A stretch of DNA of 64,000 nucleotides, from assembly GCA_041743715.1 (NCBI GenBank), contig JBGTMH010000080.1, forward strand, positions 8,529 through 72,528. The letters are read 5' to 3'. This stretch comes from Patescibacteria group bacterium (GTDB taxonomy: Bacteria; Patescibacteriota; Microgenomatia; Levybacterales; UBA12049). The number at the start of each line of letters is the position of its first letter. Position 1 is the first letter of the stretch. This document shows, one piece after another, positions 16,410 to 58,795 of the stretch. The notes beneath the pieces were generated by a model. It worked only from the letters and a program-made list of their open reading frames with translations. It was not told the origin of the DNA and did no database searches. Both the position numbers and the translations under genes were made by a program.

Positions 16410-16484
16410 TTAAGTTTATATGCTTTCATACAATCTACTAGGTCTACTTCATTATCAAATAAAACTATTCTCCTTGTCAATATA

Positions 16485-20504: not shown

Positions 20505-20773
20505 AGATTCTTATAAACTTTCTATGAAAAGCAGGGATACCATATTCTCTATATCTTACTGCTTAAAAGATACTATTTCAGTCTGTACTTTCAGCTTTCT
20601 ATCAATGGAGGGTAAAAGTTTTATCTTTTATCTTAACATCGAAAGATTCTTTTTTTTGAATACGTGTGTAGACATAGGAATATAATTCGTTAGGATTTAT
20701 CTCATATGCTTTCTCCAGTGCGATTAAAGCTCCCTGTTTATCATGCTGATTGTATTTCGCAATATTACTACTA
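20505..20773. repeat. 268-bp direct repeat, copy 2 (truncated duplicate of the 3' end of the 16581..18353 GT gene)
   Basis: See 16485..16752. It contains a degraded duplicate of the GT gene's last ~55 codons. Confidence 0.85.
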
Positions 20774-20834: not shown

Positions 20835-22616
20835 TCAATTATTAAAATAATTTCTAGATCTTTCTATTTTAACGTTTTTATTATTAGTTAAAGCATAATA
20901 AAAATCCGCAGTCTCTGGATCATTGGGATTCAATGCATAAGCATTTTTTATCGCTTCCAAAGCAGCACTATTATGACCAGATTGATATTCTAGGATTGCT
21001 AAATTAAACCAAATTTTATAATTTTTTGGGAACTTTTCTAGAGAACTGACTATAAAACTCTTGGCAATATCGGCATCATAATAATGGGCATACAAGTAAC
21101 TTAAGCTCTCGTAGGCAAAGGGACTACCTGGTTCATTCTTTATCGAAGTCTTTAACACAATCTCTGCTTTAGTAAGCAATACTCTATTTTTATGTTTCTC
21201 CGCCTCCAACATCAAAACTGTACCTAAGCCATACGAATTCATACCATAATAGGGAGCAAGCTTAATGGAACGTTCGAAATATCCTCGGGCTTTGTCATTT
21301 AATCCAGCAAGAGACAAAGCAAATCCACATGAGTTTTCTAAGGTGAAATTATCGTGTGATTGATCTGCATCGTGGCACATTAAGGCCATATTATCTTTAA
21401 AATTCATATTTCTCTCTATTGTTCGAATGGATAAAATTATTGCCAATAGGATAAATACTATCAATAAAACATTGGTTGCATTTTTGGAGTTAACGAAGTT
21501 TTGCAGTACAATTCCGATCATTCCCAAAAGCCCAACTATTGGTAAATAAAACCATCGAGTCGCAACAGTTCCATCTAAAGGAATAAGTTGCAAGTGAAGG
21601 CTCAATCCGGTAACAAACCACAATACAAAAAAAATAAACCAACGAAATTGGATAAAATTTCTCTGATAGAGTATTTTTCCGAGGAAAAAAACTACTGCTA
21701 TAAACAAAGAAATTATTGCAAGAGGTAAATAAAAATTTACAAAACTAATAGACGTTACAACCCAGTCGTAACTTACTGCAAGATTTTTGGGAAATATGAA
21801 TGTTTGCAAATAATAAAAAATTATTAGAGGTATGTTCATTAATCTTTCAAAAAGTGATAACCTACTAATATGAAATTCGTTAGGTCCAGGAAAACCGACC
21901 GCAAGAGTGTGAATAATACTATAAGAAATGATAAATGGTAAGGTATAGATGATTGTTTCTTTTAAACGGTCTTTTCTAAAAAGGAAGATATAGAATATAT
22001 TAATAAAGACGAAAGCAATGCCTGTTTCTTTAGACAAGACAGATAATAGTAATAAGGAAAATACTTTTAGCTCTACATATTTAGATTTTTTTCCACTTGA
22101 GATTAATAATGCCAACACGCCGAAAAAGAAAAACATAACATCTTGTAAATCGGAAATGTATGCTCCCACTTCCTGATTAATTGGATGGACAAGAAAGATC
22201 ACAGAAATGGCAAGTGCCCATTCTTTGCGCAGAAATTTTTTAAAGAGAATAAATACTAATATCGCATTTATAATGTATAAAATTATCTGGAGTAAATGGA
22301 AAAGAAATGCATTTTGACCACCAATGGAATGAATAAGGGTAAATGTCGTTAATAGTAAAGGTTTGTAATAGTCACCTGAAATACCATTACCTTGATTAAA
22401 CGTACTGGTAGTAAAGAAGGTCGGAATATTTGCTGCTGAATGAATACTATTGTTTGTAACTATTTGTCCAAAATCATCAGCTACAAATCCATTAAAAAGC
22501 ACATTGCCGAATACAATAAATCCAACAATAACAATAATGTGAATTGCTTTTAGTGTTGTGAGGGGAACGAAAAACTGTTTTAAAGAAAATTCCTCTTCTT
22601 GTTTATCCTGAAGCAT
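20835..22616 (-). CDS. GT-C fold glycosyltransferase, PMT/TMTC-like, with C-terminal TPR repeats (paralog of 16581..18353)
   Basis: The N-terminus is colinear with 16581..18353 (EEFSLKQFFVPLTTLKAIHIIVIVGFIVFGNVLFNGFVADD). About 11 TM segments. TPR-like C-terminus (YFERSIKLAPYYGMNSYGLGTV..., AALEAIKNAYALNPNDPETADFYYAL). Confidence 0.65.
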   Translation of the reverse strand: MLQDKQEEEFSLKQFFVPLTTLKAIHIIVIVGFIVFGNVLFNGFVADDFGQIVTNNSIHSAANIPTFFTTSTFNQGNGISGDYYKPLLLTTFTLIHSIGGQNAFLFHLLQIILYIINAILVFILFKKFLRKEWALAISVIFLVHPINQEVGAYISDLQDVMFFFFGVLALLISSGKKSKYVELKVFSLLLLSVLSKETGIAFVFINIFYIFLFRKDRLKETIIYTLPFIISYSIIHTLAVGFPGPNEFHISRLSLFERLMNIPLIIFYYLQTFIFPKNLAVSYDWVVTSISFVNFYLPLAIISLFIAVVFFLGKILYQRNFIQFRWFIFFVLWFVTGLSLHLQLIPLDGTVATRWFYLPIVGLLGMIGIVLQNFVNSKNATNVLLIVFILLAIILSIRTIERNMNFKDNMALMCHDADQSHDNFTLENSCGFALSLAGLNDKARGYFERSIKLAPYYGMNSYGLGTVLMLEAEKHKNRVLLTKAEIVLKTSIKNEPGSPFAYESLSYLYAHYYDADIAKSFIVSSLEKFPKNYKIWFNLAILEYQSGHNSAALEAIKNAYALNPNDPETADFYYALTNNKNVKIERSRNYFNN

Positions 22617-28164: not shown

Positions 28165-28302
28165 TGAGAGCGTGGAATGCATTTTTTTTCGAGAACGAAT
28201 GCTACCGAAGCATGTATATAAAAATACGAGGCACTCATGAATTACCCCGAACGAGACCAACAACCAAAAGGCCCGGTGACGAAAAAAAGTGCATTCCACG
28301 CG
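28165..28302. repeat. ~140-bp palindromic intergenic repeat element, copy A (copy B at 57924..58060)
   Basis: About 85-90% identical to 57924..58060. Terminal inverted repeats agcgtggaatgcaTTTTTTTT ... AAAAAAAgtgcattccacgc flank a ~95-bp core (cgagaacgaatgctaccgaagcatgtatataaa...ttaccccgaac...ggtgacg). No conserved ORF runs through the two copies. Confidence 0.8.
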
Positions 28303-30369: not shown

Positions 30370-33174
30370 ATGGATAAAAGCGAAGCAATCACACGACAAG
30401 AGATAATAGATAAACGCCTTGCAAAAGCTAACTGGGATGTAAAGAATCATTTTCAGGTAAAATCTGAACTTGATATATGGTTGGGTGTATCTGATGCTGA
30501 GAATATACAAGTTAACGAATATACTGGTCATCAGTTCGCAGATTATGCCTTACTTGGAGATGATGGCCACCCATTGGCAATTGTAGAAGCAAAAAAGACA
30601 TCAAAAGACGCCCGCATAGGACAAGAACAAGCTCGTCAGTATGCAGAAAATATTAAAAGGATTTCACAAAAAGATATGCCTTTTATTTTCTATACCAATG
30701 GTAATGATATTTACTTTTGGAATTCTGAAAAATACCCTCCTAGAAAGGTTTACGGATTCCCAACAAAAAAAGATTTAGAGAGAATGCTCTTTTTGAGGAA
30801 AAATGAAAAACCACTTTCTCAAGAACTAATAGACCGAGATATCTCAGGACGACCTTATCAGATAGAAGCAATCCGCTCTGTTTTTGAAAACATAGAGAAA
30901 GGGAAAAGAAAATCACTGCTCGTTATGGCAACCGGTACAGGAAAAACGAGAACGTGCGTATCAATGCTGGATGTTCTGATGCGAACAAACAGAGTACAGA
31001 AAGTTTTATTTCTGGTCGATAGAATTGCACTCAAAAATCAAGCACTCGATGCCTTTAGAGAATTTCTTCCTAATGCTCCAGTTTGGCCAAGATTTGGTGA
31101 AACTGAAATTGTAACGGATAGACGTATCTATGCCGCGACATACCCTACAATGCTTAATATTATTGAAAATAAAGACTGTCCTTTAAGTCCGCATTTCTTC
31201 GATATGATTGTTGCAGACGAAAGCCATCGGTCAATTTACAATGTCTATAAAAATATTTTTGATTACTTCGATGCCCTACAACTCGGACTTACCGCAACTC
31301 CAAAAGATGTCGTCGAACACAATACGTTTAGTCTATTCGAATGTGAAGAAGGCATACCGACCTATGCATACTCTTACGAGGAAGCAATAAACAATAAGCC
31401 TCCATACTTATGTGACTTCGAAGTCTTAAAAATTCGCACCAAATTTCAAAAAGAAGGTATTCGAAAAGATACTATTTCCAAAGCAGAACAATTAAAATTA
31501 CTTGCTGAGGGTAAAGAACCTGAAGAAATAAATTATGAAGGGAGTGATATTGAAAAGAAGGTTACGAATAGAGGAACAAACGCACTTATTGTCCAAGAGT
31601 TTATGGAAGAGTCGATAAAAGATGAGAGTGGCACTTTACCAGGAAAAACGATCTTCTTTGCAATGACCATGAAACATGCACGACGGTTGCAAGAAGTTTT
31701 TGACGATTTATATCCTGAGCATAAAGGAAATATAGCTAAAGTAATCGTGTCAGATGATCCTCGTGTCTATGGCAAAGGTGGTCTCTTAGACCAATTCGTT
31801 AATAGTGATTTTCCAAGAATTGCTATCAGTGTCGATATGCTTGATACGGGAATAGATGTTCGCGAACTTGTTAACTTAGTATTCGCCAAACCAGTTTTTT
31901 CATATACAAAATTCTGGCAAATGATTGGAAGAGGCACAAGACTTCTTGAGTCGAAAAAAATCAAACCCTGGTGTAAAGAAAAAGATAAATTCCTGATTAT
32001 GGATTGCTGGGAGAATTTTGATTATTTTGAAATGAACCCAACTGGAAAAACTGAAAAACCTACAAAGCCGCTCCCCGTTCGACTTTTTGAAAGTAAATTA
32101 GAAAAACTAAATATCGCACAGACGCAAAATAATAGTCTGTTAACGCAAAAAACGATTCTTAAACTAAAAGAAGATATTGAAAGGTTGCCACAAAATAATG
32201 TGGTTATATTAGATGCTAAAACAAAACTTGATAAGCTAAATGATACTTTTTGGCAAAATCTTAATGACGATAAGAAGCTTTATCTTCAAAAAGAAATTGC
32301 TCCGCTTATGCGTACACGAACGGGTGAAGATTATAAGGCGATGAGTTTTGAGTTAAAAGTCATAAAGTATTCCCTTACTAAACTGAAATCTGAAGATGAT
32401 AAAAAAGTAAAAACCCTTGAAGAGGTACTCATAGAAATGATTTCTGATCTACCACTAACTGTCAATATTGTCGCAAGAGAAAAAGAATTAATTGAAGACG
32501 TGCTTTATAATAACTACCTTAATAAAGCAACAGATGATGAGCTCGATATCTTAATAGAAAATATTGCTCCCTTAATGAAATTTCGAGAAGAAGGAATTAA
32601 GCCAGACCAAGATTCACTAGACTTACGAGACATTACACATGAAAAAGAATATATTAAATTCGGACCGCAACACGAAAGAATTACCACACATAAATATCGA
32701 GAAAAAGTCGAAGCATTGATCAAAAAACTTGAAAGGGAAAATGATATATTGGTAAAAATAAAAGAAGGAAAAAGCATTACTTCCGAAGAAATAGAAGAAC
32801 TTGCCACAACACTCGCTGAATACGACCCTTATCCTACAGAAGAGAACTTGCAAAAAGCATATGACGCAAGAACAGTAAGATTTATCGACCTTATAAAGTA
32901 TATAATGGGAATAGGCGGACTTGTTACTTTCTCCGAAAAAGTATCAGAAGCATTTGCAGAATTCATCGCTGAACATAATACACTCTCAGCAAAACAAATC
33001 CAGTTTTTACACACGCTACAAACATTCATTATCGAAAACGGCGAACTTTCAAAAAGAGACTTAGTTCGTGAACCATTTACGAAGATACATGCTGATGGAT
33101 TTCTGGGATTATTTGACCAACGCATGCAGTCTGAAATACTGGATCTAACGGAACAAATAACAAATTATGCTTAA
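30370..33174 (+). CDS. hsdR: Type I restriction enzyme R subunit (HsdR)
   Basis: HSDR_N-type N-terminus (ITRQEIIDKRLAKANWDV). SF2 helicase motifs: motif I LLVMATGTGKTRT and motif II VADESHRS (DEAH-like). 934 aa, overlapping hsdM by 8 nt. Confidence 0.85.
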   Translation: MDKSEAITRQEIIDKRLAKANWDVKNHFQVKSELDIWLGVSDAENIQVNEYTGHQFADYALLGDDGHPLAIVEAKKTSKDARIGQEQARQYAENIKRISQKDMPFIFYTNGNDIYFWNSEKYPPRKVYGFPTKKDLERMLFLRKNEKPLSQELIDRDISGRPYQIEAIRSVFENIEKGKRKSLLVMATGTGKTRTCVSMLDVLMRTNRVQKVLFLVDRIALKNQALDAFREFLPNAPVWPRFGETEIVTDRRIYAATYPTMLNIIENKDCPLSPHFFDMIVADESHRSIYNVYKNIFDYFDALQLGLTATPKDVVEHNTFSLFECEEGIPTYAYSYEEAINNKPPYLCDFEVLKIRTKFQKEGIRKDTISKAEQLKLLAEGKEPEEINYEGSDIEKKVTNRGTNALIVQEFMEESIKDESGTLPGKTIFFAMTMKHARRLQEVFDDLYPEHKGNIAKVIVSDDPRVYGKGGLLDQFVNSDFPRIAISVDMLDTGIDVRELVNLVFAKPVFSYTKFWQMIGRGTRLLESKKIKPWCKEKDKFLIMDCWENFDYFEMNPTGKTEKPTKPLPVRLFESKLEKLNIAQTQNNSLLTQKTILKLKEDIERLPQNNVVILDAKTKLDKLNDTFWQNLNDDKKLYLQKEIAPLMRTRTGEDYKAMSFELKVIKYSLTKLKSEDDKKVKTLEEVLIEMISDLPLTVNIVAREKELIEDVLYNNYLNKATDDELDILIENIAPLMKFREEGIKPDQDSLDLRDITHEKEYIKFGPQHERITTHKYREKVEALIKKLERENDILVKIKEGKSITSEEIEELATTLAEYDPYPTEENLQKAYDARTVRFIDLIKYIMGIGGLVTFSEKVSEAFAEFIAEHNTLSAKQIQFLHTLQTFIIENGELSKRDLVREPFTKIHADGFLGLFDQRMQSEILDLTEQITNYA

Positions 33175-34687
33175 TACGACAATAAAATCAGATATAAATC
33201 GCCTTTGGGATAAATTTTGGAGCGGTGGCATCTCTAATCCTTTAACTGCAATTGAACAAATCTCCTATCTCCTCTTCATGAAACGGCTCGATGAAATGGA
33301 TCTGAAAAAGAAACGCGATGCAGAATTTACTGGAGAAAGTTATCAATCAATTTTTGCAGGAAAAGAAAATCTTCGTTGGAGTCATTTCAGAGAAATGGAA
33401 GGCGGAGAAATGCTTACTCACATACAAACACAAGTCTTCCCTTTTCTAAAGTCGCTAGGCAAAGAAGAATCACCATTTGCAAAACATATGAGCAATGCCG
33501 TCTTCATTATTTCCAAGCCATCGCTCATAGTCGAAGCAGTAAGTATTATAGATACTCTCTTTACAGAAATTTCAAAACAATCATCCGAAGGCCAAGGATT
33601 CCAAGACACGCAAGGAGATGTCTACGAGCATTTACTCTCAGAAATAACAAGCGCCGGCAAACTCGGTCAATTTCGTACCCCAAGACATATTATTCAATTA
33701 ATCTGCGAGCTTGTTGATCCCAAACTAGGTGATACAATTTGCGACCCCGCATGCGGCACAGGAGGATTCCTGCTCGGAGCATACCAACACATTCTTACCC
33801 AACATACAAGTAAGGACCATCAACAAACAGATGAAAATGGCCTAACACGCGGACTTGTCGGAGACAACCTTACAGATGAGAGACAATGGAAACAGCTAAA
33901 GGAAAAAACATTCTATGGATACGATATGGACGACAGTATGGTACGAATCGGACTTATGAACCTCATGATGCATGGTATATCCATTCCAAATATTGAGCAA
34001 AAAGATACGTTATCTAAAAAGTACGATGAAGATAATTACTTCGACGTAATCATGGCCAATCCCCCCTTCAAAGGCAGTATCGATAAAGGTGATATCAACG
34101 AATCGTTATCTCTACCTACAACAAAAACAGAATTATTGTTTATCAATCGAATTATAAAATCTCTCAAAATTGGAGGCCGTGCTGGAGTAATCGTCCCAGA
34201 TGGAGTCCTTTTCGGGTCAAGTAATGCACACAAACAAGCCAGAAAAATGCTTCTCAACGACTGTGAACTACAAGGAATTATCTCTATGCCAAGCGGCGTC
34301 TTCAAACCATACGCTGGAGTAAGTACAGCAATTCTCATTTTTGTAAAAGGCGGAGAGACAGAAAAAGTTTGGTTCTATGATATGCAGGCAGATGGATATA
34401 GTCTAGATGATAAAAGAAGCAAAATTAAGGAAAACGATCTGCCAGACATTGTTGAGAAATGGAACTATAGAAAAGAATTAAAAGGAAACACTCGCTCTAG
34501 TATATTTTTCTCCGTAGATAAAAAAACAATTGAGGAAAACGATTTAGACCTGAGTATAAATAGATATAAAGTAACTAAATATAAAGAAGCAATCTATGAG
34601 GATAGCAAAATTATATTAAGTAAAATCAATAAACTTGAAGAAGAAATACAAAAAGGTATATCCGAATTATTAAATGTAAAATTATGA
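33167..34687 (+). CDS. hsdM: Type I R-M N6-adenine DNA methyltransferase subunit (HsdM)
   Basis: HsdM_N-like N-terminus (LWDKFWSGGISNPLTAIEQISYLLFMKRL). SAM motif DPACGTGGFL and catalytic NPPF (IMANPPFKGS). Confidence 0.9.
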   Translation: MLNTTIKSDINRLWDKFWSGGISNPLTAIEQISYLLFMKRLDEMDLKKKRDAEFTGESYQSIFAGKENLRWSHFREMEGGEMLTHIQTQVFPFLKSLGKEESPFAKHMSNAVFIISKPSLIVEAVSIIDTLFTEISKQSSEGQGFQDTQGDVYEHLLSEITSAGKLGQFRTPRHIIQLICELVDPKLGDTICDPACGTGGFLLGAYQHILTQHTSKDHQQTDENGLTRGLVGDNLTDERQWKQLKEKTFYGYDMDDSMVRIGLMNLMMHGISIPNIEQKDTLSKKYDEDNYFDVIMANPPFKGSIDKGDINESLSLPTTKTELLFINRIIKSLKIGGRAGVIVPDGVLFGSSNAHKQARKMLLNDCELQGIISMPSGVFKPYAGVSTAILIFVKGGETEKVWFYDMQADGYSLDDKRSKIKENDLPDIVEKWNYRKELKGNTRSSIFFSVDKKTIEENDLDLSINRYKVTKYKEAIYEDSKIILSKINKLEEEIQKGISELLNVKL

Positions 34688-35838
34688 CCAATGCCGTTAC
34701 CCTCGGGGAAGTATGTGAGTTTCTTGATTATCAAAGAAAACCTGTAACTGCAAAAGACCGAGTCTCAGGTAAATATCCATATTATGGTGCAAACGGGGTT
34801 CAGGATTATGTAGATAGCTATTTATTCGATGATGAACTAGTTTTACTGGCAGAAGATGGTGGACACTTTGATGATCCTTCTAGGGGAGTTGCTTATCGAG
34901 TAAGCGGAAAGTGTTGGGTTAATAATCATGCACATGTATTAAAGCCAAAGAATAATATAGACGTTGATTACCTTTATTATATATTAAGAGAGTATGACGT
35001 TAGGCCATTTATTACTGGTGCGATAATAAAGAAGCTTAATCAGAAAGATGCAAAGAGGATGACGCTATATCTTCCCTCCCTCGAAAAACAAAAAAGAATC
35101 GTAAAAGTTCTCGATCAAGCTGATTCTCTTCGTCAAAAACGCAAGCATTCACTCAAATTTTTAGATGAATATATCAAATCTGTTTTTCTTGAGATGTTTG
35201 GTGACCCAGTAAGTAACTTAAGAAAATGGGAGGTTGCAAAACTTGAAGACTTATTATCAAACATAGATAGTGGTTGGAGCCCTAAATGTTTAGAAGGAAA
35301 GGCTTCAAAGGAAAGCTGGGGAGTACTTAAGTTAAGTGCGATTACAAATTGTAATTATAATGAAGAACAAAATAAGGAACTCCCTAATTCTTTACATCCC
35401 AAACTAAGTATTGAAGTAAAAAGTGGCGATTTACTATTTTCAAGAAAAAATACCTATGAGTTAATTGCAGCGACCGCATTTGTGTTTAATACAAGACCTA
35501 AGTTAATGCTTTCAGATTTAATTTTTCGGTTAAAAACAAAAGATACTTCAGTAATTAGACCTCAATTTCTTTGGAAAACCTTAACACATTCAGGAAAAAG
35601 AAAAGAAATACAACGATTGGCAGGTGGTGCTTCAGGCTCGATGCCTAATATATCAAAAGCAAAGTTAAAAACCATTACCATACCTGTACCACCAATTGAT
35701 TTGCAACTGAAATTTACGCAAATTGTTAACGACACGGAAGTATTAAAAAGAAAAATGCTTAAACAAGCTTCTGATCTAGATTTACAATTTCAGTCACTGT
35801 TGCAAAAAGCTTTTAAAGAAGAATCACATGGAGAATGA
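34684..35838 (+). CDS. hsdS: Type I R-M specificity subunit (HsdS), two target-recognition domains
   Basis: Two TRDs separated by the conserved central region (LPSLEKQKRIVKVLDQADSLRQKRK) and a matching C-terminal conserved helix (IPVPPIDLQLKFTQIVNDTEVLKRKMLKQ). ATGA-type overlap with hsdM. Confidence 0.85.
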   Translation: MTNAVTLGEVCEFLDYQRKPVTAKDRVSGKYPYYGANGVQDYVDSYLFDDELVLLAEDGGHFDDPSRGVAYRVSGKCWVNNHAHVLKPKNNIDVDYLYYILREYDVRPFITGAIIKKLNQKDAKRMTLYLPSLEKQKRIVKVLDQADSLRQKRKHSLKFLDEYIKSVFLEMFGDPVSNLRKWEVAKLEDLLSNIDSGWSPKCLEGKASKESWGVLKLSAITNCNYNEEQNKELPNSLHPKLSIEVKSGDLLFSRKNTYELIAATAFVFNTRPKLMLSDLIFRLKTKDTSVIRPQFLWKTLTHSGKRKEIQRLAGGASGSMPNISKAKLKTITIPVPPIDLQLKFTQIVNDTEVLKRKMLKQASDLDLQFQSLLQKAFKEESHGE

Positions 35839-35994: not shown

Positions 35995-37671
35995 TTATAC
36001 ATTTTCAACGGCAGGTATTACGAACCACTTCTTTTTAATCTTGTCATATTCAATTTTATTAGCCTGTTTTAACCTTCTTATTATGTTATAGCACATATCA
36101 TATGTATACCCTTTATCGTCAAAGATCTGAGTTATTCCTGCCATAGTAGCCCCACTCGTTCTATACTCTGTTAAATGGTTCATCACCTGATATTCTTCTT
36201 GCTCTTTTGTATACTTCTCCCATCTTGAACGTTTTCCAGTAGTTTGGGTTTTAGCAGCAAATTTTTTTGAGATATTACATCTACGAGTTCTGCCGGGACT
36301 TAAATCAATATAACCTAGCTTGGATAACCTTTCAGCATCATCTTTAGAAATTTGTGTAGGTGTTTTGTTAACACCTGATACAATTTTATCCAAGATTAAA
36401 AGATCTTCGAATTCTATATTACTTTTTTGTAAGACCAACTTAGCAAAATCTTCGTTATCTACTTTACCTAATAGCGTGAAATGAACAAAAGGAGGATTTA
36501 AGCTATCAAAAAAGTCATTTATGATTCTGGTTCCTTTTCGTAACTGTCTATCATACACTTTTCTCAATCCTCCTCCTTCTTGCTCCATTAAATTTACACT
36601 TCTAAACAAAAACGTCATCCTCGCATTTAAATATTCAGGCCTAATATTATTCTTAATTGCAGCCTCTAAATCTGCACGGAATCTACCAGGATTTCTAAAT
36701 GATACGCTTGTCGGTGTCTGAACAACATCAACCCATAACGATATTGTCCAGTCTCTATGAGCAAGGCTATTGACTAATAACTCTTCTATAGCCTCATCGT
36801 CATATTGTTTAATATCCTGCCTAAATAAATCTAAATCTCTCAAGTATGTATTAAATCGATGTATAGTAGTTTCAAGCTCATAAAGACTTAATAATAAAGG
36901 ACTATAAAAGTCCATTCTCTCAACCACTCCGTTCTTCTCATCCTCATACTTCCAGTGGATTTTTGCTATCTCGCCTAATAATCGCTCTGATGAATCTTTT
37001 TTTCCAAGATATAAAATACATGTGTTATTTGGGACATTATTTGTAAGTAATCGTTGAGAATTTAATAATTGCGTTAAGGACATATCAACATACTTTTTAT
37101 CACTGTGAATACTTGCAAGTTTTTCTCTAAGAAATATGATAGCCTTATCATCTAAATCATTGGGTGATGCTCCTATGCATGCGTTTGCTGACCAGTCAGT
37201 ACTTACTTTTTTATTCCAAATTTTTCTTGCCTTTTCAGGATAATCTTTTAATAGTTTCTTATATGACCCAACCCGAATATATTCTATTCCTTTAAACTTA
37301 ACTGGCATATCTTTTGTGGCATCAATTTTTAATATAACAATTGCCTTTCCAATATAATTGAATTCGTATACTTCAAAATCAATACGTGGACTAAGTAAAG
37401 ATGCAAGCCAATTTTCGAGTTCCTCATTACCTACTTTTTCATCCTTTGGTCTAAACTTTGTACCTACTATTTCATGAGTTATATCCTCAACACCAAAAAC
37501 AAGATAAGAGAAGTCTTCGTTATGCAGGCAGGCAGAATTAGACAGTGCGGATATATACTCTCCAATATCATGAGGCGAATAATTATTTATTTTAAACTCA
37601 ACCCATTCGGTTTCGCGGGGTAATCTAATTATTTCCTCAAATTTAGCTGTGATTACTTCTATAGAGAGCAT
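35995..37671 (-). CDS. AlbA_2 (Schlafen-like) DNA-binding domain + HATPase_c_4 domain protein (putative regulator/defense-associated ATPase)
   Basis: N-terminus AKFEEIIRLPRETEWVEFKINNYSPHDIGEYISALSNS (AlbA_2 divergent-AAA pattern). C-terminal part with an HATPase_c_4-like region and a wHTH. Start set at MLSIEVITAKF. Confidence 0.5.
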   Translation of the reverse strand: MLSIEVITAKFEEIIRLPRETEWVEFKINNYSPHDIGEYISALSNSACLHNEDFSYLVFGVEDITHEIVGTKFRPKDEKVGNEELENWLASLLSPRIDFEVYEFNYIGKAIVILKIDATKDMPVKFKGIEYIRVGSYKKLLKDYPEKARKIWNKKVSTDWSANACIGASPNDLDDKAIIFLREKLASIHSDKKYVDMSLTQLLNSQRLLTNNVPNNTCILYLGKKDSSERLLGEIAKIHWKYEDEKNGVVERMDFYSPLLLSLYELETTIHRFNTYLRDLDLFRQDIKQYDDEAIEELLVNSLAHRDWTISLWVDVVQTPTSVSFRNPGRFRADLEAAIKNNIRPEYLNARMTFLFRSVNLMEQEGGGLRKVYDRQLRKGTRIINDFFDSLNPPFVHFTLLGKVDNEDFAKLVLQKSNIEFEDLLILDKIVSGVNKTPTQISKDDAERLSKLGYIDLSPGRTRRCNISKKFAAKTQTTGKRSRWEKYTKEQEEYQVMNHLTEYRTSGATMAGITQIFDDKGYTYDMCYNIIRRLKQANKIEYDKIKKKWFVIPAVENV

Positions 37672-37945
37672 GAAAAAACTGTAATATAAAACACGTTCAT
37701 TATACACGACCTTTATCTTGCAAACAATTAACGGCATTGTACAATGCTCAATAATATATAGATAATTTTACTTTATTGATCTATAATTTCTGAAAAGCTC
37801 TTTGAAAAGCTGACGGAGAAAACCTCCGGCCCTTATTAGTGGGGTTAGTTTATCTCACGCCTCCTCCTAAGATCATAAATTTTTGTGATTTTAGGGGGAG
37901 CAGCAGATTAGCTTCCCTGCTATTTGGAAAGGGGGTGATTCAAAA

Positions 37946-38215: not shown

Positions 38216-39220
38216 ATGAAAAAGATACAGGACAACCAAATTGCGTTCTATCAATCACTGGATGGATCGGTGAATATTGAAGTGTTGTATGCTGAAGAAA
38301 ATATCTGGCTCACACAAAAGAAAATGGCAGAACTTTTTGACACCACTCCTCAAAACATCACGCAACACTTAAAAAATATATATGCAGCAAATGAAATTGA
38401 GGATTCAACTTGTAAGGATTTCTTACAAGTTCAACAAGAAGGAAGCCGGGAAATTAAAAGAAATACCACAATGTATTCGTTGGAAGCTATAATTGCTGTT
38501 GGGTATCGAGTTAATTCGGAAAGAGGTACTCAGTTTCGTCAATGGGCAACGGGGATATTGAAAAATTACATTCACAAAGGTTATGCACTGGATAGTAATC
38601 GCATGAAATATGGCTCCCGATTTAGCACTCGGTATTTTGATGAGCTTTATGAAGAGATCAAAGACATTCGTACGAGCGAACGGATGATTTATCAGAAGAT
38701 TACAGACATCTATGCAACTGCTATAGATTATTCGCCAATTGCATATGCGAGCAAAAAATTTTTCGCGACAGTACAGAACAAACTTCATTTTGCGATCACT
38801 GGAGAAACGGCAGCCGAAATAATTACCAATCGCGTAAGCAGTAAAAAAGACAAAATGGGACTCACTTCATGGCGCAAATCACCACAAGGTAAAATCATGC
38901 CTAGCGATGTGACAATTGCCAAAAATTATTTGGATAAAAAAGAACTTGCTCATCTTAATCGTATCGGCAATATGTATTTGGACTATGCAGAAATGCAGGC
39001 AGCCAGAGGAAAGGCAATGACGATGAAAGATTGGATAGAAAAACTGAATGCTTTTCTAAAATTCAGCGAATATGAAATTTTAACCAATGCCGGTAAGATC
39101 AGTCATGAAGTCGCAGAATCCCTAGCTTTAGGGGAATATGAAAAATATAAAAAAATACAAGACAAAAACTATATTTCTGATTTTGATCGGGAAGTGAAGA
39201 AGTTGTTGAAGAAAAAATAA
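38216..39220 (+). CDS. RhuM-family protein (Virulence_RhuM)
   Basis: The core EGSREIKRNTTMYSLEAIIAVGYRVNSERGTQFRQWATGILKNYIHKGYALDSNR matches the RhuM family signature. Confidence 0.75.
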   Translation: MKKIQDNQIAFYQSLDGSVNIEVLYAEENIWLTQKKMAELFDTTPQNITQHLKNIYAANEIEDSTCKDFLQVQQEGSREIKRNTTMYSLEAIIAVGYRVNSERGTQFRQWATGILKNYIHKGYALDSNRMKYGSRFSTRYFDELYEEIKDIRTSERMIYQKITDIYATAIDYSPIAYASKKFFATVQNKLHFAITGETAAEIITNRVSSKKDKMGLTSWRKSPQGKIMPSDVTIAKNYLDKKELAHLNRIGNMYLDYAEMQAARGKAMTMKDWIEKLNAFLKFSEYEILTNAGKISHEVAESLALGEYEKYKKIQDKNYISDFDREVKKLLKKK

Positions 39221-39452: not shown

Positions 39453-40310
39453 ATGAACCATTACGTTTTTCAAGTTTCAGACCAGTCAAATTATAGCACT
39501 CATCGCACAGCTGCGGAAACATTTGACCAGCTTGTAAGACAACACTCTGTATGGGGTTTTGGTAAAAATACCCCTAACAGAAAAGCAATACAACCAGGTG
39601 ATAAAGTTCTCTTTTATTTAACTGGAGCAGATAATCAAACTTTTGTAGGTTCAGCTACGTTAAAAACTGGTTCTTACGTAGATGCAACTGGAGAATCAAA
39701 AGATTGGTTCTTAGACCCAGAAACGTTAAGAATTGACCTTCAAGATGTAGCAATTTTCCCTCAACCTAAACCTCGACATCAGTTCAAAAGCCTTGAATGG
39801 CAACCCCGACAAGGTGGCTCCAGCACAATTTCCGAAAGGGACTACTTATTGATACTGGGGCTAAAACCGGATACCACAATCAAAGAAGAAATAGCTGAAG
39901 AATCTATGGATATAGTTCTTGAAGAATATCTTGAAAATATGATCATCCAAAATTGGGAAAAAATAAATTTTGGAGAAAAATTAACAATTTTTGAGGATGA
40001 AAACGGTAATTTAGGTAAGCAATATTATACAAAAGAAGTTGGCTATATTGATATATTAGCAAAAGATAGTAAGGGTAATTTTGTTGTAGTCGAACTTAAG
40101 GTTGGAAGGAAAAATGATGAAGTAGTCGGTCAAATCCTCAGATATATGGGATGGGTCCGTAAAAACTTAGCAGGAGGAAAAGAAAATGTACGTGGTTTAA
40201 TTATTGTAGGGGAACAAGACACAAAACTTGATTATGCTTTAAGCGAAATATCAGATAAGGTGGAAGTAAAAAAATATAATGTTTCTCTTACTTTAAATAA
40301 ATATGAATAG
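39453..40310 (+). CDS. EVE/PUA-like domain fused to a PD-(D/E)xK nuclease (DUF91/NucS-like); candidate modification-dependent (type IV) restriction endonuclease
   Basis: N-terminal ~130 aa has an EVE/ASCH-like beta-barrel pattern (YVFQVSDQSNY...VWGFGKNTPNRKAIQPGDKVLFYLTG). The C-terminus has VGYIDILAKDSKGNFVVVELKVGRKNDEVVGQILRYMGWV, i.e. D-x(n)-E-x-K, the restriction-endonuclease-fold catalytic motif. Confidence 0.55.
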   Translation: MNHYVFQVSDQSNYSTHRTAAETFDQLVRQHSVWGFGKNTPNRKAIQPGDKVLFYLTGADNQTFVGSATLKTGSYVDATGESKDWFLDPETLRIDLQDVAIFPQPKPRHQFKSLEWQPRQGGSSTISERDYLLILGLKPDTTIKEEIAEESMDIVLEEYLENMIIQNWEKINFGEKLTIFEDENGNLGKQYYTKEVGYIDILAKDSKGNFVVVELKVGRKNDEVVGQILRYMGWVRKNLAGGKENVRGLIIVGEQDTKLDYALSEISDKVEVKKYNVSLTLNKYE

Positions 40311-40985: not shown

Positions 40986-43211
40986 ATGCAGATAAAAGAA
41001 CTAATTGACCGGAAAGCTTCTTTTTCAAAAAGAGTTATACAAAATAGCTTCTCTTCACTTTTTCTGGGCCTCAGTGTTATAGTAGGGTTTTTTATAATGC
41101 TCTTTGTTTTACCAGTACTTACTTCCCCAGGATACGCACAGACTTTTCCAAACTGGACAAATACAGGTTCGATGGCTGATGCACGTTATAATTTTGGTAC
41201 GGCATTATTACCAAATGGTAAAGTACTGGCAGTAGCAGGTCGTGCTCAAGGTGTTAATAATAATCTTCATTCAGCAGAACTATATGACCCAACAAATGGT
41301 ACATGGAATACAACGGGTTCAATGAATTCGTTCCGTCACGACTTCCCAAAGCCAATCACCCTCTCAAATGGAAAAGTACTTGTAACTGGAGGGAGTAACA
41401 GTACTTCTCTTTCCTCTACTGATTTATATGATTCAAATACAGGGACATGGACATTCACGGGATCTATGAATGATAGTCGTACATTTCCTACTGCTACATT
41501 ACTTCCTGATGGCAAGGTATTAGTAACTGGAGGATATGATGCAGATTTCAGTACCGTTGTCTACCATTCCTCAGCTGAGATATATGATCCTACATCAGGC
41601 ACGTGGACGCCAACAGGATCTATGAGTACTGCTCGTTACCATCACACCGCTACACTTCTTAATAACGGAAAAGTACTTATCTCTGGAGGTAGTGATGCTA
41701 CTGATAGTCTTGCTTCAACAGAACTCTATGATCCTACAACAGGTACTTGGACATCAACAGGAAATTTGAATGAAGCTCGCTCTGAACACACTGCCACCTT
41801 ACTCTCAAACGGCAAAATACTTGTTGCTGCAGGATCAGGACCTGCTCCTCTTGCGTCAACAGAACTCTATGATCCAGTTACCGGTAATTGGACTGCTACA
41901 GGAAATTTGAATGAAGCTCGATCAGTACATACTGCAACATTACTCTCAAGTGATAACGTCCTTATTGCCGGTGGTATAGTAGGTGGTAGCACTACCTCAT
42001 CTGCTGAACTATATGATCCTATTAGCGGCATATGGTCACTGACCGCACCCTTGAATCAAGCACGTGGGTTTCATGAAGCTGAGTTATTACTAAATAATAA
42101 AGTGTTAGCAGTTGGTGGTTTTGGTTTAAATTCTAGTGATGCACTAGCATCAGCAGAGCTTTATACGCTCATTGAACCAACACCTACAGCCACCCCCACA
42201 GCAACGCCGACACCGACGCCTACAGAAACGCCCACCCCAACTCCAACCGAAACCCCTACTCCTACTCCCACAGATACCCCCTCTCCGACACCAACCCCAG
42301 TTCCAACGTATACCATTGACGGCAACGTTTATACAGATAGCAATCAAAACGGTGTCAAAGATTCCGGTGAAACAGATTACCAAGGAGCGACTATAACGCT
42401 TTCTGGAGATGCAAGTGACACAACGACAACAAATAATTCAGGCAACTATACATTTTCATCCCTCAATACCGGCTCATATACAGTGAATCTCAGTGTGCCA
42501 GCAGGATACACTGCAACAACCACCAATCCAGTCTCAGTACCCTTGACTGCTGATACAACAGTTAACTTCGGAATAGCACCTGTGCCAACCAGTACCCCAA
42601 CTCCCATACCTACAAATACGCCAACACCAACTGCGACACCTACCCCTACAGATACACCGACTCCAACCGCAACACCAACACCTACGAGTACACCAACTCC
42701 TACTCCAACACCAAAGATACTCTCATCTTTGAGTCCTGCAAAAGTGTGGATCGGGTTACCTAATTTCTTTAGCGCGGGTGCAAAGTTTGATGTGAAAGTC
42801 GAAGCATTTAAAGATGCAACCCTGGTCAGCTCGGGACAGAAAAATAGTGTTGATCCAGGACTTGGGTTTGGTGGATTTACGAGTGCAAAGCTACAAACAA
42901 TTCCATTCGGTGCCTTCACTCCTGTTAATTTTCCACAAGGATCAAAATTGAGCATCAAAGTGTCTGCAAGAACTGCTTGCACCGGATCACAAAGTCCGAT
43001 CGGCACCGCGAGACTGTGGTACAATGATAGTCAAGCAAATAGCAGCTTTGATGCCACCATCGGGATAACGAACAGCGACTATTACCTCCGTTCCGGCTCA
43101 ATCCTCACCACAACAGTCGGGAGCGGACCAAAACTAACATCTGATGTCCTAGGTGGAGCAGCATGTAGCGCATTCAAACCATTCGGCACATGGGTCACGA
43201 CTCCTTTATAA
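40986..43211 (+). CDS. Secreted Kelch-repeat surface protein P3 with SdrD-B-like module and conserved C-terminal domain
   Basis: Start at ATG 40986 (MQIKELIDRKASFSKRVIQNSFSSLFLGLSVIVGFFIMLFVLPV), colinear with the P1 N-terminus. About 8 Kelch blades (AELYDPTNGTWNTTGSMNSFRHDF...). PT linkers. An SdrD-B/Cna-B-like module (VPTYTIDGNVYTDSNQNGVKDSGETDYQGATITLSGD...). CTD ending GGAACSAFKPFGTWVTTPL. Confidence 0.85.
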   Translation: MQIKELIDRKASFSKRVIQNSFSSLFLGLSVIVGFFIMLFVLPVLTSPGYAQTFPNWTNTGSMADARYNFGTALLPNGKVLAVAGRAQGVNNNLHSAELYDPTNGTWNTTGSMNSFRHDFPKPITLSNGKVLVTGGSNSTSLSSTDLYDSNTGTWTFTGSMNDSRTFPTATLLPDGKVLVTGGYDADFSTVVYHSSAEIYDPTSGTWTPTGSMSTARYHHTATLLNNGKVLISGGSDATDSLASTELYDPTTGTWTSTGNLNEARSEHTATLLSNGKILVAAGSGPAPLASTELYDPVTGNWTATGNLNEARSVHTATLLSSDNVLIAGGIVGGSTTSSAELYDPISGIWSLTAPLNQARGFHEAELLLNNKVLAVGGFGLNSSDALASAELYTLIEPTPTATPTATPTPTPTETPTPTPTETPTPTPTDTPSPTPTPVPTYTIDGNVYTDSNQNGVKDSGETDYQGATITLSGDASDTTTTNNSGNYTFSSLNTGSYTVNLSVPAGYTATTTNPVSVPLTADTTVNFGIAPVPTSTPTPIPTNTPTPTATPTPTDTPTPTATPTPTSTPTPTPTPKILSSLSPAKVWIGLPNFFSAGAKFDVKVEAFKDATLVSSGQKNSVDPGLGFGGFTSAKLQTIPFGAFTPVNFPQGSKLSIKVSARTACTGSQSPIGTARLWYNDSQANSSFDATIGITNSDYYLRSGSILTTTVGSGPKLTSDVLGGAACSAFKPFGTWVTTPL

Positions 43212-46180: not shown

Positions 46181-49100
46181 TTACGGAGTAATTGTCCACG
46201 TTCCAAATGATTTGAATGGACTACATGCAGCTCCTCCTTGGACGTCAGCAGTCTTTTTTGGCCCTGTGCCGACTGTTGTCCCAAGAACAAGGTTGTCTTT
46301 GAGGTAGTATGTTTTCTCGTTAGTGTCGATAGTTGCTCCAAATTGGCTATTTGCTTGGCTATCGTTATACCAAAGTCTCGCAGTGCCAAGCGGACTCAAG
46401 GAGCCTGTACAGGCTGTCCGTGCTGAGAGTTTCATACGCAATTGTGATCCTTCCGAAAAATCAACTGGGGTGAATGTGTTAAAGGGAATAGTTGCCAATT
46501 TGGCGCTCCCAAACCCGCCGAACAAGTTTATCAAACCGGGATCAAAACGATTAAGTTGTCCTGAACTGATAAGCGTTGTATCTTTATAGACTTCAGCTTT
46601 CAAATCAAACTTAGCTCCTGACCCTAAAAGACCACCCAGTCCGACCCATACTTTTGCCGGCTTCAAGATATTCAGTTTGGGCGGCTGGATCTGCTCAACG
46701 ATCGCAAAAGGAGACAGAGTGGAAGTGGTGCCTGTTATCACATACGTATTGGTATCCGGATCAGTGACTGTACTTGACTCTGTAATATCCTCCCAAGCGG
46801 TGCCGTTATAATGGAGAAGCTTGAGATTTTGATTGGGATTTTGGCCAGTATACGTAATCGATATGGTAACTAGACCTGTATATGTTGCCGTTGTTGAAAT
46901 GTCATAAAAGGTATTCAATATCTTGTATTTTGAAAGTATAGGACCGCCTGAATTATTGCTTGAAGGCGTTATATAGACATACCCCCCTTCTGTCAGATTA
47001 CTGAAAGAAATGGTTGCATTGCCTATGGTTACTGGCCCCTGCCCCGGCTCAACAGGTGCATTACTTACAGTACTGCTGATGGTAAAGGTCTGGGTTTTAT
47101 GTGGTGTTTCTTCAAGTCCGGTATTATCAACTGACCAGTAGGTAATTGTATGTAGTCCTGCCCCGGGTACTTCAAACGGTCCTGAATAGGTTTGTTGGGT
47201 GTTTCCATCAATTTGATAATAGGTATTGGCAATGGTAAAACCAGGTGACGCTGATGCTGAGAGTGTAACATGCACAGGATCAGAATACTCGCCATTATCA
47301 AGTGCATTAGGTGCCAAGTTAGCTGTTGTCGTCGGTTGGTTATGTGGTGTAATGCCAAAATTTTGAGTTGTATCTGCACTTAGTGGAATTGTTGCAGGGT
47401 TTGTTGTTGTTGCTGCATATCCAGTGGGTATTATGAGTGTTTCTGTATATGAATCTGACTGTAAATTTGGGAAGGAATAATTACCATTTCCATCTGTTGT
47501 TGCCGTTTGGCCAGTGTTTAAGTTGAGTGTTGCATCTTCATAACCTGTTTCACCAGAATCTTTGACACCGTTTTGATTGCTATCTGTATACACATTGCCG
47601 TCAATGGTATATGTTGGGACTGGGGTTGGTGTCGGAGTGGGGGTATCTGTGGGTGTGGGAGTTGGTGTGTCGGTTGGAGTAGCTGTTGGCGTAGGGGTAG
47701 GAGTTTCTGTTGGCGCTACTGTTGGAGTTGGTGACGATGTCGGAGTTGGCGTTGCTACACCATAAAGCTCCGCTGATGACGCACCATTAGAAGAACCCCA
47801 AGCTGCTAGTACATTACCATTTGACAATAACACTGCTTCATGGAAACTGCGTCGTGAGTTCATAGAGGCTGTTGCAGTCCATGTATTACCTGAAGGATTA
47901 TATATTTCCGCAGAGGATAAAAGGTTGGAGCTATCGGAATCACGTCCTCCAGCTAAAAGAACAAGACCATTGGAAAGCAGTGTTTGGGTATGTAAGAACC
48001 GTACAGTGCTCATATTTCCTGCTGATGACCATGTGTTTGTACTCGGATCATATAGTTCAGCCGATGATAGCCTAGTGCCAGCCTGGAAATCAGTCCCACC
48101 CGCTATAAGTACTTTATCATTAGCAAGAAGAGTAGCTGTATGTTGCGTGCGTTGCGTAGCTAAAAAAGCAACTTGCGTCCATGCTCCAGTTGCTGGATCA
48201 TATATCTCGGGAGAAAATCCTCCTCCCACGACAAGCACTTTTCCATTTGCAAGAAGAGTAGCTGTAGGATTAGGATGAAATTTATTCATGGATCCCGTGG
48301 GAGACCATGTGGCTGTTGCAGGATCATATAACTCTGCTGAGGTGAAATTTGTTGCGCCATTATTTCCTCCCGTGACTAGTACCTTACCGGTGGCAAGTAA
48401 TGTAACAATAGGGTTATCACGTCCAGCACTCATAGATCCAGTGGGAGACCATATGCCAGTTGCTGGGTCATATAACTCTGCTGAAGCTAGCGCACTATTT
48501 GTTTGCGCGTCCTGACCACCAGCCACGAGTACTTTTCCATTAGCAAGTGTTACTATTTCCAAATTAAAACGCGCTCTATTCAATGAGCCTGTATTTGTCC
48601 ATGCTCCAGTTGCTGGATCATATATCTCTGCTGTTGAATTTCCTGCACCAAGTACTTTTCCGCTCTGTAATAATGCCATACCAATATGTTGATTATTCGA
48701 AGACCCTGTATACGTCCATGTAGGGGCGGCAGGAGTTGGGGTGGGTATTATTGTGGGTGATTCGGTAGGTGTTGGGGTCGTTTCAACTATTTTTGCGATG
48801 TAAGCATCAGAGCCACCATTGTCGGAGTACAAAGCATTAGCAATTGGGAAATCAGTGGAATGTGTAAATCCACCTACGTATACCTTACCGGCAGTGTCAC
48901 GCGCAATTGCTTCCCCATAATCATCTCCCCCGCCTCCAAGGTATGTAGAAAAGATAAGAGCACTTCCTGTGGGATTTAATTTGGTAACAAAAGCATCCTG
49001 GGTCGTTTCAGGTCCACCATTGGTTGCCTGGATTGCGTCCTGGACCGGAAAGTCTGTCGAATTCGTGGTTCCGACGACATAGGCGTTTCCAGAAGAATCA

Positions 49101-57887: not shown

Positions 57888-57923
57888 CCGCTTATTATAG
57901 CATCTACAATTTGCCCGCATTGT

Positions 57924-58060
57924 GAGAGCGCGGAATGCACTTTTTTTCGAGAACGAATGCTACCGAAGCATGTATATAAACATATGCGGTACTCATGAGT
58001 TACCCCGAACAATGGTAACAAACGTAGGTACGGTGACGAAAAAAAGTGCATTCCACGCTC
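57924..58060. repeat. ~140-bp palindromic intergenic repeat element, copy B (copy A at 28165..28302)
   Basis: See 28165..28302. It lies in the divergent intergenic region between 56862..57887 (-) and 58149..58634 (+). Confidence 0.8.
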
Positions 58061-58148: not shown

Positions 58149-58634
58149 ATGCATCAGAGTGAATTGAAAAAATGGATAATTATTATGGTAGCTGCGCTCC
58201 TTGTGATGATTGGCTTGGCACTCTCTGTACAAAAACCCGATTCCCTTTCACGTATTCCCTTATTTGCGCCAACGCCTACGCCCACACCACTTGCCTCAGC
58301 AAATATCACCGTGCTGATGCCTCTTGCAACATCTCTGGTCAGTCAAGAATTTGAAATAACAGGCAAGGCTCGTGTCCTAGAAAACATCGTTACCATACGA
58401 CTCAAAGACAAAATCTCAGGACAAATCTACTCACAAGTGCAAGCACTCACGACAGCAACAGAACCGGGGACCTATGGAGATTTTAGTGCCGTCATACAAC
58501 TTGAAGACGCCGATGATGCAGAACTCCTCCCTGGAGCAATACTCATCCTTGAAGTATTCCAAATCTCACCAACAGACGGAAGGGAAATCGACAAAGTCAT
58601 AGTCCCCCTCAAATTCCAACCAATTGCAGGTTAG
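58149..58634 (+). CDS. Membrane-anchored protein with Gmad2-like immunoglobulin-like domain (hypothetical)
   Basis: N-terminal TM helix, a PTPTPTP linker and a beta-rich domain (EFEITGKARVLENIVTIRLKD...ILILEVFQISPTDGRE) resembling Gmad2-type Ig-like domains. Confidence 0.4.
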   Translation: MHQSELKKWIIIMVAALLVMIGLALSVQKPDSLSRIPLFAPTPTPTPLASANITVLMPLATSLVSQEFEITGKARVLENIVTIRLKDKISGQIYSQVQALTTATEPGTYGDFSAVIQLEDADDAELLPGAILILEVFQISPTDGREIDKVIVPLKFQPIAG

Positions 58635-58635
58635 G

Positions 58636-58793
58636 AGCTGTCCCAAAATAAGTTATATAAAATCACTTAGGATTTTTGAGTGGAATTCAAGGCGCTAATC
58701 AGCGATAGTATACAATGTATACTTGAGTTGATTAGCAACGAAGAATTCCGCCAAAAAGACAAGTCAGTTTGTGTAAGTTATTTTGGGACAGCT
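58636..58793. repeat. Inverted-repeat element exactly filling the gap between convergent genes (16/16-bp perfect terminal IRs, nested internal palindromes)
   Basis: agctgtcccaaaataa (58636-58651) and ttattttgggacagct (58778-58793) are perfect reverse complements, with adjacent bases extending to ~20/22 matches. Inside are gctaatca...tgattagc and tatacaatgtata palindromes. Confidence 0.7.
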
Positions 58794-58795
58794 GC

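Follow-up and report, generated by a model that had tools for sequence, protein, structure and literature searches.

Five modular, putatively surface-located proteins of a Levybacterales bacterium, probably a family of old duplications and joined modules

The window analysed here is a stretch of 64,000 nucleotides (nt) from contig JBGTMH010000080.1 of the Patescibacteria group bacterium assembly GCA_041743715.1 (Levybacterales). It contains five large genes, P1–P5, located within 45 kb, whose products are composed of modules separated by Pro-Thr linkers of the TPTPTP type. We consider it probable that P1–P5 are a lineage-specific family of secreted, likely cell-surface multidomain proteins, which arose by old duplication and by the joining of modules at the Pro-Thr linkers, with recombination between paralogs limited to short tracts. 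An interpretation of the same DNA made without database searches (the sequence-only reading) had described the shared modules as nearly identical cassettes that are being exchanged among the genes by shuffling or gene conversion. The number of synonymous substitutions per synonymous site (dS) is at least 0.93 for every shared module, silent sites are near-saturated, and no pair of the five genes shares an exact match longer than 35 nt. These values argue against ongoing exchange of whole cassettes.

Results

Domain architecture of P1–P5

The N-termini of all five proteins are hydrophobic and signal-like, and the C-termini are formed by a domain of about 165 amino acids (aa), here called the C-terminal domain (CTD; Table 1). 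The same cassette, composed of a Pro-Thr linker, an SdrD_B module, a second Pro-Thr linker and the CTD, is positioned behind three different N-terminal parts: an array of CarboxypepD_reg repeats in P2, a Kelch propeller in P3, and an NHL/Vgb-lyase propeller in P4. Searches of the window with the individual modules (tblastn) recovered exactly five CTDs, six SdrD_B modules and three OmpL47-like domains, and no additional fragments. The homology of the approximately 1-kb C-terminal blocks greatly exceeds chance expectation (self-blastn, E = 0 to 1e-165). The listed open reading frame (ORF) of P3 opens with a GTG codon at position 40767, 73 codons upstream of Met 74 (nt 40986). The homology to the N-terminus of P1 begins at this methionine (MQIKELI versus MQLKQLV), and the alignment indicates that nt 40986 is probably the true start.

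SdrD_B modules are present in P3 and P4 where the sequence-only reading had placed them, and the further copies that it expected in P2 and P5 were found as well, three in the former and one in the latter. All four proteins match the Pfam family PF17210 above its cutoff of 29.7 bits (P2 188.4, P3 59.8, P4 58.6 and P5 44.9 bits). The hmmscan search matched six stretches of P2, in which three modules were placed by their motif and by tblastn. Module P2c belongs to the subtype of P3 and P4. Modules P2a and P2b represent a second subtype and have 59–63% aa identity. The CTD segments recur five times in both orientations, in agreement with the earlier description, with three copies on the reverse and two on the forward strand; pairs of CTDs are 65–78% identical in aa and 65–77% in nt sequence. 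The similarity of the chitobiase-like domains of P1 and P5, previously put at about 70%, was a close estimate, as the first 85 codons are 76.5% identical in aa and 74.5% in nt sequence, and the complete 216-aa block is 64% identical in aa sequence. The NCBIfam model NF047446 has a cutoff of 40 bits, which is exceeded by P1 (41.4 bits) and P2, while P5 scores just under it (Table 1).

The propeller regions had been called unrelated, which is wrong for P1, P3 and P5. The three proteins contain homologous Kelch propellers (PF01344; 227, 153 and 150 bits, respectively). Residues 1–415 of P1 and 74–480 of P3 share 55% aa identity, and the corresponding DNA is 65% identical over 1.1 kb (blastn, E 1.6e-61). 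The Kelch regions of P3 and P5 are 52% identical. Only P4 and P2 have N-terminal parts that differ in kind. P4 matches Vgb_lyase (PF24684) at 363 bits instead of Kelch, and the CarboxypepD_reg array of P2 contains no propeller. The Kelch array of P5 holds a 32-nt perfect repeat (48177–48208 and 48597–48628), and its neighbouring blades reach 87% identity over 55 nt. Over short spans, repeat similarity within this gene rivals that of the cassettes between genes, with exact matches of 32 and 35 nt, and identities of 87% over 55 nt and 82% over 282 nt, respectively.

Divergence of the shared modules

The pair of segments for which near-identity had been proposed, 42297–42600 of P3 and 44515–44815 of P4, matches at 245 of 301 nt (81.4%), with a longest exact run of 17 nt. 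Near-identity is thus found only in the protein, where the modules are 90.4% identical. Third codon positions hold 41 of the 50 differences (82%) in the 94-codon core of the two modules, and 44% of the third positions differ. The other module pairs share 60–80% nt identity, and long alignments of paralogs in blocks of about 1 kb show 65–74% by self-blastn.

The divergence values, including the number of nonsynonymous substitutions per site (dN) and the proportion of differing synonymous sites (pS), were calculated by the Nei–Gojobori method with Jukes–Cantor correction only. Across every pair of every module (SdrD_B, CTD, OmpL47, Kelch and the whole cassette), pS is 0.53–0.78, dS at least 0.93, and dN 0.04–0.39. 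The closest pairs of SdrD_B modules have dS values of 0.93 (P2c–P4), 1.07 (P3–P4) and 1.17 (P2c–P3); those of other modules are 1.22 for the CTDs of P1–P5, 1.22 for the CTDs of P3–P4, and 1.09 for the Kelch regions of P1–P3. Conserved residues are encoded by the same codon in a fraction of 0.50–0.58 of cases, compared to 0.38 expected from the codon usage of the genes themselves. A residual silent-site signal remains, yet most silent sites have turned over. Concerted evolution is expected to keep hundreds of nucleotides near-identical with a synonymous divergence of about 0. The best module reaches 82% nt identity with dS of 0.93–1.2. Self-alignment therefore yielded, for whole-cassette exchange, the outcome that the sequence-only reading had itself named as contrary to its proposal, namely protein-level similarity with saturated synonymous sites.

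Orthologs of backbone genes in the window and in the nearest relatives have pS values of 0.60–0.86 (0.72–0.86 for RecA, RNase Y and the ABC transporter, and 0.60–0.72 for HU), and the youngest paralog pairs 0.53–0.61. The latter mostly postdate the split from the nearest sampled relatives, and are still far from identical.

The dS of the Kelch regions of P1 and P3 (1.09) is similar to that of the SdrD_B modules of P3 and P4 (1.07), whereas dN is 0.36 in the former and 0.044 in the latter. The similar dS and differing dN suggest that much of the mosaic of conserved cassettes and divergent propellers reflects unequal purifying selection, and not unequal age. The shared modules appear to have kept their high similarity in protein through purifying selection, with dN/dS of about 0.04–0.15.

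Recombination between paralogs

The homology blocks open inside Pro-Thr linkers, at position 42217 of P3 and 44437 of P4, and at aa 1040 of P2 and aa 477 of P3. The linkers may therefore be the junctions at which modules were joined.

The SdrD_B module of P5 is a chimera. Its codons 1–28 (47537–47620; 84 nt) are 90% identical to nt 42300–42383 of P3 and contain an exact run of 35 nt. The other 64 codons (29–92) are 67–68% identical to P2a and P2b in nt sequence, compared to 57% for P3. Informative sites are P3-like in 29 of 30 cases left of codon ~29, and P2a-like in 37 of 53 to the right of it. The maximum chi-square breakpoint lies at alignment nt 86–90 (permutation p = 0.0005). A GENECONV-like run test was significant for P3–P5 (p = 0.0002) and for P3–P4 (p = 0.004).

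The signal of P3–P4 is complemented by a conversion-like tract at the 3' ends of the two adjacent genes, which differs at 2 of 76 nt and reaches 5 nt beyond the stop codon. The 200 nt on its 5' side are only 68% identical, so that identity rises in a sharp step to 97%. Outside of this tract, the CTD of P4 is closer to the CTDs of P1 and P2 (breakpoint test, p = 0.0005). Pairwise homoplasy index tests were weakly significant (p = 0.016 and 0.046). Exchange between paralogs is real, yet its tracts are shorter than 100 nt and rare. Of the proposal that the mosaic results from cassette exchange between paralogs, old shuffling and two short tracts stand, and current exchange of whole cassettes does not.

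Efficient RecA-dependent recombination needs roughly 25–30 nt of identity and drops steeply with divergence. The shared repeats, with 65–82% identity and exact matches of at most 35 nt, are poor substrates for homologous recombination, because they are too diverged for it to be frequent given this requirement. The expectation that the repeats can drive rearrangement or assembly errors is not supported either, since at 65–82% identity assemblers using k-mers longer than ~35 should not be confused by them. A diversity-generating retroelement was considered as the source of variation and rejected. The mismatches of the P3/P4 SdrD_B pair are spread over the bases (A 16, T 15, C 11, G 8) without an adenine bias, and no reverse transcriptase was present among the 30 ORFs scanned with Pfam, out of 46 ORFs of at least 150 aa.

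Genomic setting

RecA is encoded in the window, and RecA proteins 82–87% identical to it carry the labels Levyibacteriota or Patescibacteria. We compared the window with three related contigs, L062, L064 and L068, the RecA proteins of which are 90–93% identical to that of the window (L064 93%). The gene order around RecA in L062 and L068 is SAM synthetase, PDDEXK, FKBP, DUF559, DsbA, DUF378, FKBP, cohesin, HD, RecA, RecX, RNase Y, HU and ABC transporter. L064 covers a shorter stretch, in which some flanking genes differ and the same compact order around RecA is present. When the proteins of L062 are mapped on the window, their order is kept and all five large genes fall into four gaps. P1 is located between RNase Y and HU. 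P2 is positioned between RecA and RecX, together with two PMT_2/TPR genes of low guanine-cytosine (GC) content. P3 and P4 belong to an 18-kb island between DUF378 and DUF559, and P5 directly follows DUF559, accompanied by a gene for a LigD-type phosphoesterase. The P1–P5 family is accessory and lineage-specific.

The part of the island directly upstream of P3 and P4 (27345–40310) is missing from the relatives and carries defence-type genes (Table 1). The GC content of the PMT/TPR and restriction genes is 0.32–0.36. The scanned ORFs include neither a transposase nor an integrase. Flanking direct repeats or target-site duplications are lacking around the insertions of P1 and P5, to which this check was confined; internal Kelch/SBBP repeats were the only ones present.

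The insertion with P2 encodes two membrane TPR proteins (16581–18353 and 20835–22616; GC 0.32–0.33). The first matches PMT_2, which is protein O-mannosyltransferase-like, and the second matches TPR models only. Glycosylation of the Pro-Thr linkers in the large proteins by a PMT_2-type enzyme is conceivable, but only an idea. The most similar repeat of the window is also located here, with 93% identity over 260 nt between 16484–16743 and 20505–20764. The first copy is made up of the 3' end of gene 16581–18353 (PMT_2/TPR) and intergenic DNA just upstream of the start of P2, and the second lies downstream of the paralogous TPR gene 20835–22616. The repeat probably remains from a partial duplication that occurred recently. 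At the RecA/RecX junction, where the window holds P2 and the PMT/TPR genes, L064 contains a different, unannotated gene of 387 aa (6568–7731). Because the content differs between the two, variable content seems to arise recurrently at this junction.

Two further elements were observed outside of the P1–P5 genes. An intergenic element of about 135 nt is present in two copies that are 87% identical (28165–28301 and 57923–58058). Its ends form an inverted repeat of 18–22 bp (GTGGAATGCAyTTTTTTT ... AAAAAAAGTGCATTCCAC), and both strands fold into a long hairpin (z of about −7). Its single match in Rfam, MIR2599, is below threshold (27.6 bits compared to 120). The element looks like a miniature inverted-repeat transposable element or an uncharacterised structured RNA. 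A self-complementary stretch of 164 nt (58633–58796; palindromic, 75%) is positioned between ORF 58149–58634 and a gene for a DUF87/TrwB-type ATPase (58796–61042).

The CTD as a wider family

The CTD has no match in Pfam even at E of at most 10, no NCBIfam match that covers it, and no relative in the PDB by profile search. Its AlphaFold2 model, calculated from an alignment of 89 sequences, is a confidently predicted β-sandwich (mean predicted local distance difference test (pLDDT) score 95.5, predicted template modelling score 0.90). Foldseek comparison of the model with the PDB revealed only a weak C2-like resemblance (E of at least 0.04, template modelling score of at most 0.31).

Among 1.84 billion cluster representatives, 1,773 CTD members (clusters at 50% identity) were identified by profile search at E of at most 1e-3. 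In nearly all of the best 150 of these matches, the domain ends at the final residue of the protein. Among 60 members, at least 117 Pfam families precede the domain, including Kelch, HYR, PKD, CarboxypepD_reg, Laminin_G_3 and SdrD_B. Named genomes with the domain include Gottesmanbacteria, Saccharibacteria, Anaerolineaceae, Methylomirabilota, Rokubacteria and metagenome-assembled genomes of Acidobacteriota. The loop that usually reads KNSDDVG in the family is replaced in the window by loops rich in glycine and hydrophobic residues, such as GGIFGAG and PNFFGFG. The CTD copies of the window are 65–78% identical to one another, compared to 51–68% for their best homologs elsewhere. Scans of contigs from genomes and metagenomes for close relatives of the cassette found identities of at most 60%; each locus had a single CTD, and neither SdrD_B nor OmpL47 modules were located next to it. 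Literature searches returned general context on the surface biology of Patescibacteria, but no study of the gene family.

The distribution of the CTD is that expected of a general-purpose module for anchoring or binding at the protein terminus, and such a function is deduced from this pattern. A role as a pure export or sorting signal was also considered. It is unlikely, since other genomes contain stand-alone CTD genes without a signal peptide.

Table 1 Coordinates of P1–P5, their modules and other features of the window
Feature	Position	Strand	Description and basis
P1	6724–10185	−	1153 aa; signal/anchor sequence, two Kelch propeller regions, Pro-Thr linker, OmpL47/chitobiase-like domain, unannotated middle domain, CTD (ORF list, Pfam, NCBIfam, translation)
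P2	12315–16409	−	1364 aa; signal peptide, ~7 CarboxypepD_reg repeats, OmpL47-like domain, SdrD_B modules a, b and c, CTD
P3	40767–43211	+	Kelch propeller, Pro-Thr linker, SdrD_B, Pro-Thr linker, CTD (ORF list, Pfam, translation)
P4	43358–45382	+	674 aa; signal peptide, Vgb-lyase/NHL-type propeller, Pro-Thr linker, SdrD_B, Pro-Thr linker, CTD
P5	46181–50893	−	1570 aa; signal peptide, DUF7948, SBBP repeats, Kelch, Pro-Thr linker, chimeric SdrD_B, OmpL47-like domain, middle domain, CTD
SdrD_B of P3	42300–42581	+	Compared to P4: 82.3% nt, 90.4% aa over 94 aa, dS 1.07, dN 0.044
SdrD_B of P4	44516–44797	+	Alignment to P3 module
SdrD_B P2c	12906–13187	−	P3/P4 subtype; compared to P3: 88% aa, 80.5% nt, dS 1.17
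SdrD_B P2b	13296–13571	−	Second subtype
SdrD_B P2a	13704–13979	−	Second subtype
SdrD_B of P5	47345–47620	−	Chimeric; 66% aa identity
CTD of P1	6727–7227	−	~167-aa β-sandwich, two conserved Cys; AlphaFold2 pLDDT 95.5
CTD of P2	12318–12815	−	Alignment of CTD copies
CTD of P3	42708–43208	+	Alignment of CTD copies
CTD of P4	44882–45379	+	Mosaic: mostly P1/P2-like, final ~70–100 nt P3-like; breakpoint test p = 0.0005
CTD of P5	46184–46687	−	Alignment of CTD copies
OmpL47/chitobiase-like domain and middle block of P1	7228–7875	−	Compared to P5 46688–47335: 64% aa, 68% nt over 216 aa, dS 1.73
OmpL47/chitobiase-like domain and middle block of P5	46688–47335	−	NF047446 35.8 bits
OmpL47-like domain of P2 (third copy)	13971–14240	−	tblastn 56% over 91 aa; NF047446 45.5 bits
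Conversion-like tract, 3' end of P3	43141–43216	+	2 mismatches in 76 nt (97%) to P4 45312–45387; reaches 5 nt beyond stop codon
Partner tract, 3' end of P4	45312–45387	+	Matches P3 43141–43216
hsdR	30370–33174		Type I restriction-modification, P3/P4 island
hsdM	33167–34687		Type I restriction-modification, P3/P4 island
hsdS	34684–35838		Type I restriction-modification, P3/P4 island
Schlafen/AlbA_2	35995–37737		P3/P4 island
RhuM	38216–39220		P3/P4 island
EVE + PD-(D/E)XK	39453–40310		P3/P4 island
NYN-domain protein			P3/P4 island

Discussion

Origin of the family

We propose that the family grew by gene duplication and by the joining of modules at Pro-Thr linkers. A common C-terminal part, formed by the SdrD-B-like stalk and/or the OmpL47-like domain together with the CTD, would have been combined with different N-terminal propellers or immunoglobulin-like arrays, which presumably hold the binding specificity. 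The events that built the family are old, at about one or more substitutions per silent site. The stalk and CTD are most plausibly conserved because they interact with one shared partner, for instance the cell envelope, and the propellers diverge faster. Recombination between the paralogs was limited to short tracts of ~75–85 nt, the youngest of which is that at the 3' ends of P3 and P4.

Several points weigh against this account. The 76-nt tract at 97% identity indicates that exchange has not fully stopped. The dS values come from a single type of estimate and from short modules (92–167 codons), and individual values are noisy. No ortholog of P1–P5 was found, and concerted evolution is therefore not separable from simple duplication by a tree. 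The stand-alone CTD genes of other genomes, ~160 aa long and without a signal peptide, speak against a role of the domain in export or sorting alone.

Three other explanations were weighed. It is very unlikely that whole domain cassettes are currently exchanged among the paralogs by gene conversion, diversifying the proteins and making the repeats prone to recombination or misassembly. In its favour, the five genes share modules in both orientations within 45 kb, RecA is encoded in the window, and there are the tracts of 76 nt (97%, adjacent P3 and P4) and 84 nt (90%, P3 and P5). Nevertheless, no cassette exceeds 82% nt identity, the lower bound of dS and the 35-nt limit on exact matches hold everywhere, and 44% of third codon positions differ even in the SdrD_B modules of P3 and P4; the lack of adenine-specific mismatches and of a reverse transcriptase in the 30 ORFs gives no sign of retroelement-driven diversification. 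Plain duplication and divergence without any recombination between paralogs, with the pattern caused by unequal constraint alone, is unlikely too. It would account for the dS of about 1.1–1.3 found in the Kelch regions and CTDs of P1–P3 and in the SdrD_B modules of P3–P4, while dN differs up to eightfold, and for the homology of P1 and P3 from the signal peptide on. It does not explain why P3 and P4 have propellers of different Pfam families and yet one C-terminal cassette, nor the switch of subtype at codon ~29 of the P5 SdrD_B module (p = 0.0005), nor the step from 68% to 97% identity that continues beyond the stop codons of P3 and P4.

A separate acquisition of the five genes by horizontal transfer, or an artefact of assembly or binning, so that the genes are not paralogs within one genome, is highly improbable. 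In all collections searched, the closest relative of each paralog is another of the five, their GC content (0.41–0.45) equals that of backbone genes (0.40–0.47), and the backbone genes on either side are intact and colinear with independent assemblies. The absence of transposases and integrases from the scanned ORFs, and of direct repeats around P1 and P5, the two insertions checked, points in the same direction. In favour of separate acquisition, all five genes are missing from the three related backbones and occupy four separate gaps, one of which also holds the defence genes (with P3 and P4) and another the low-GC PMT/TPR genes (with P2).

Comparison with known systems

The MSCRAMM (microbial surface components recognizing adhesive matrix molecules) Sdr proteins, such as SdrC and SdrD with their B repeats, resemble P1–P5 in the use of PF17210 modules as a stalk that connects the N-terminal functional region to the C-terminal end. 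Several paralogs per genome have a common stalk and end and differ in the N-terminus. However, P1–P5 lack the LPXTG sortase signal, the Ser-Asp repeat and the A domain, and their N-terminal parts are β-propellers. Their C-termini end in FGTWTITP or FGTWVTTPL, with neither an LPXTG motif nor a hydrophobic tail. Scores for the SdrC/SdrD models NF000535 and NF012181 are 34–93 bits compared to cutoffs of 1700–2500, and thus only the fold of the B domain is shared.

In the cargo proteins of the type IX secretion system (T9SS) of Bacteroidota and in S-layer proteins with S-layer homology (SLH) domains, many passengers within and across genomes end in the same terminal domain, as they do here. The CTD of the window nevertheless has no sequence match to the T9SS CTD, SLH or any Pfam or NCBIfam model, including the T9SS sorting-domain models (Por_Secre_tail/TIGR04183-type). 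At ~165 aa it is larger than the T9SS domain, its hosts are Patescibacteria, Acidobacteriota, Chloroflexota and Methylomirabilota, and it also occurs in the stand-alone copies without a signal peptide.

Pro/Thr-rich linkers are found between the modules of extracellular proteins, among them the glycoside hydrolases secreted by bacteria. In P1–P5, similar TPTPTP-type linkers are positioned between all modules and contain the boundaries of the homology blocks, but no catalytic carbohydrate-active domain was detected in the five proteins. The pilE/pilS genes of Neisseria and vlsE of Borrelia are segmental gene conversion systems for surface variation, in which short tracts are copied between paralogous surface-protein genes, as between P1–P5. 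In contrast to these systems, the window contains neither silent cassette arrays nor high-identity flanks, and the tracts are located in conserved and not in variable regions. The overall divergence of P1–P5 indicates that conversion events of this kind are rare here. P1–P5 are an ordinary paralogous family of modular, putative surface proteins.

Implications

Active cassette exchange that diversifies surface proteins would, if true, be a mechanism worth pursuing, but it finds no support in the data. The findings are of use for annotation, and they illustrate that stalk and terminal domains kept alike by purifying selection can be mistaken for nucleotide-level cassettes when sequences are read by eye. 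For the quality of the assembly, the repeats are too diverged to be of concern.

We speculate further, as a doubtful extension of these findings, that the CTD might be an undescribed, widespread terminal module that tethers or targets diverse passengers at the surface of Patescibacteria and several soil phyla. The P1–P5 family, inserted at four points of the backbone, might then serve as a fast-turnover repertoire for host interaction, with occasional short-tract conversion and with Pro-Thr linkers that may be O-glycosylated by the co-inserted PMT_2-type transferases. The unannotated CTD family deserves a family model and a structure, and the large genes for putative surface proteins constitute variable content of an otherwise colinear Patescibacteria backbone.

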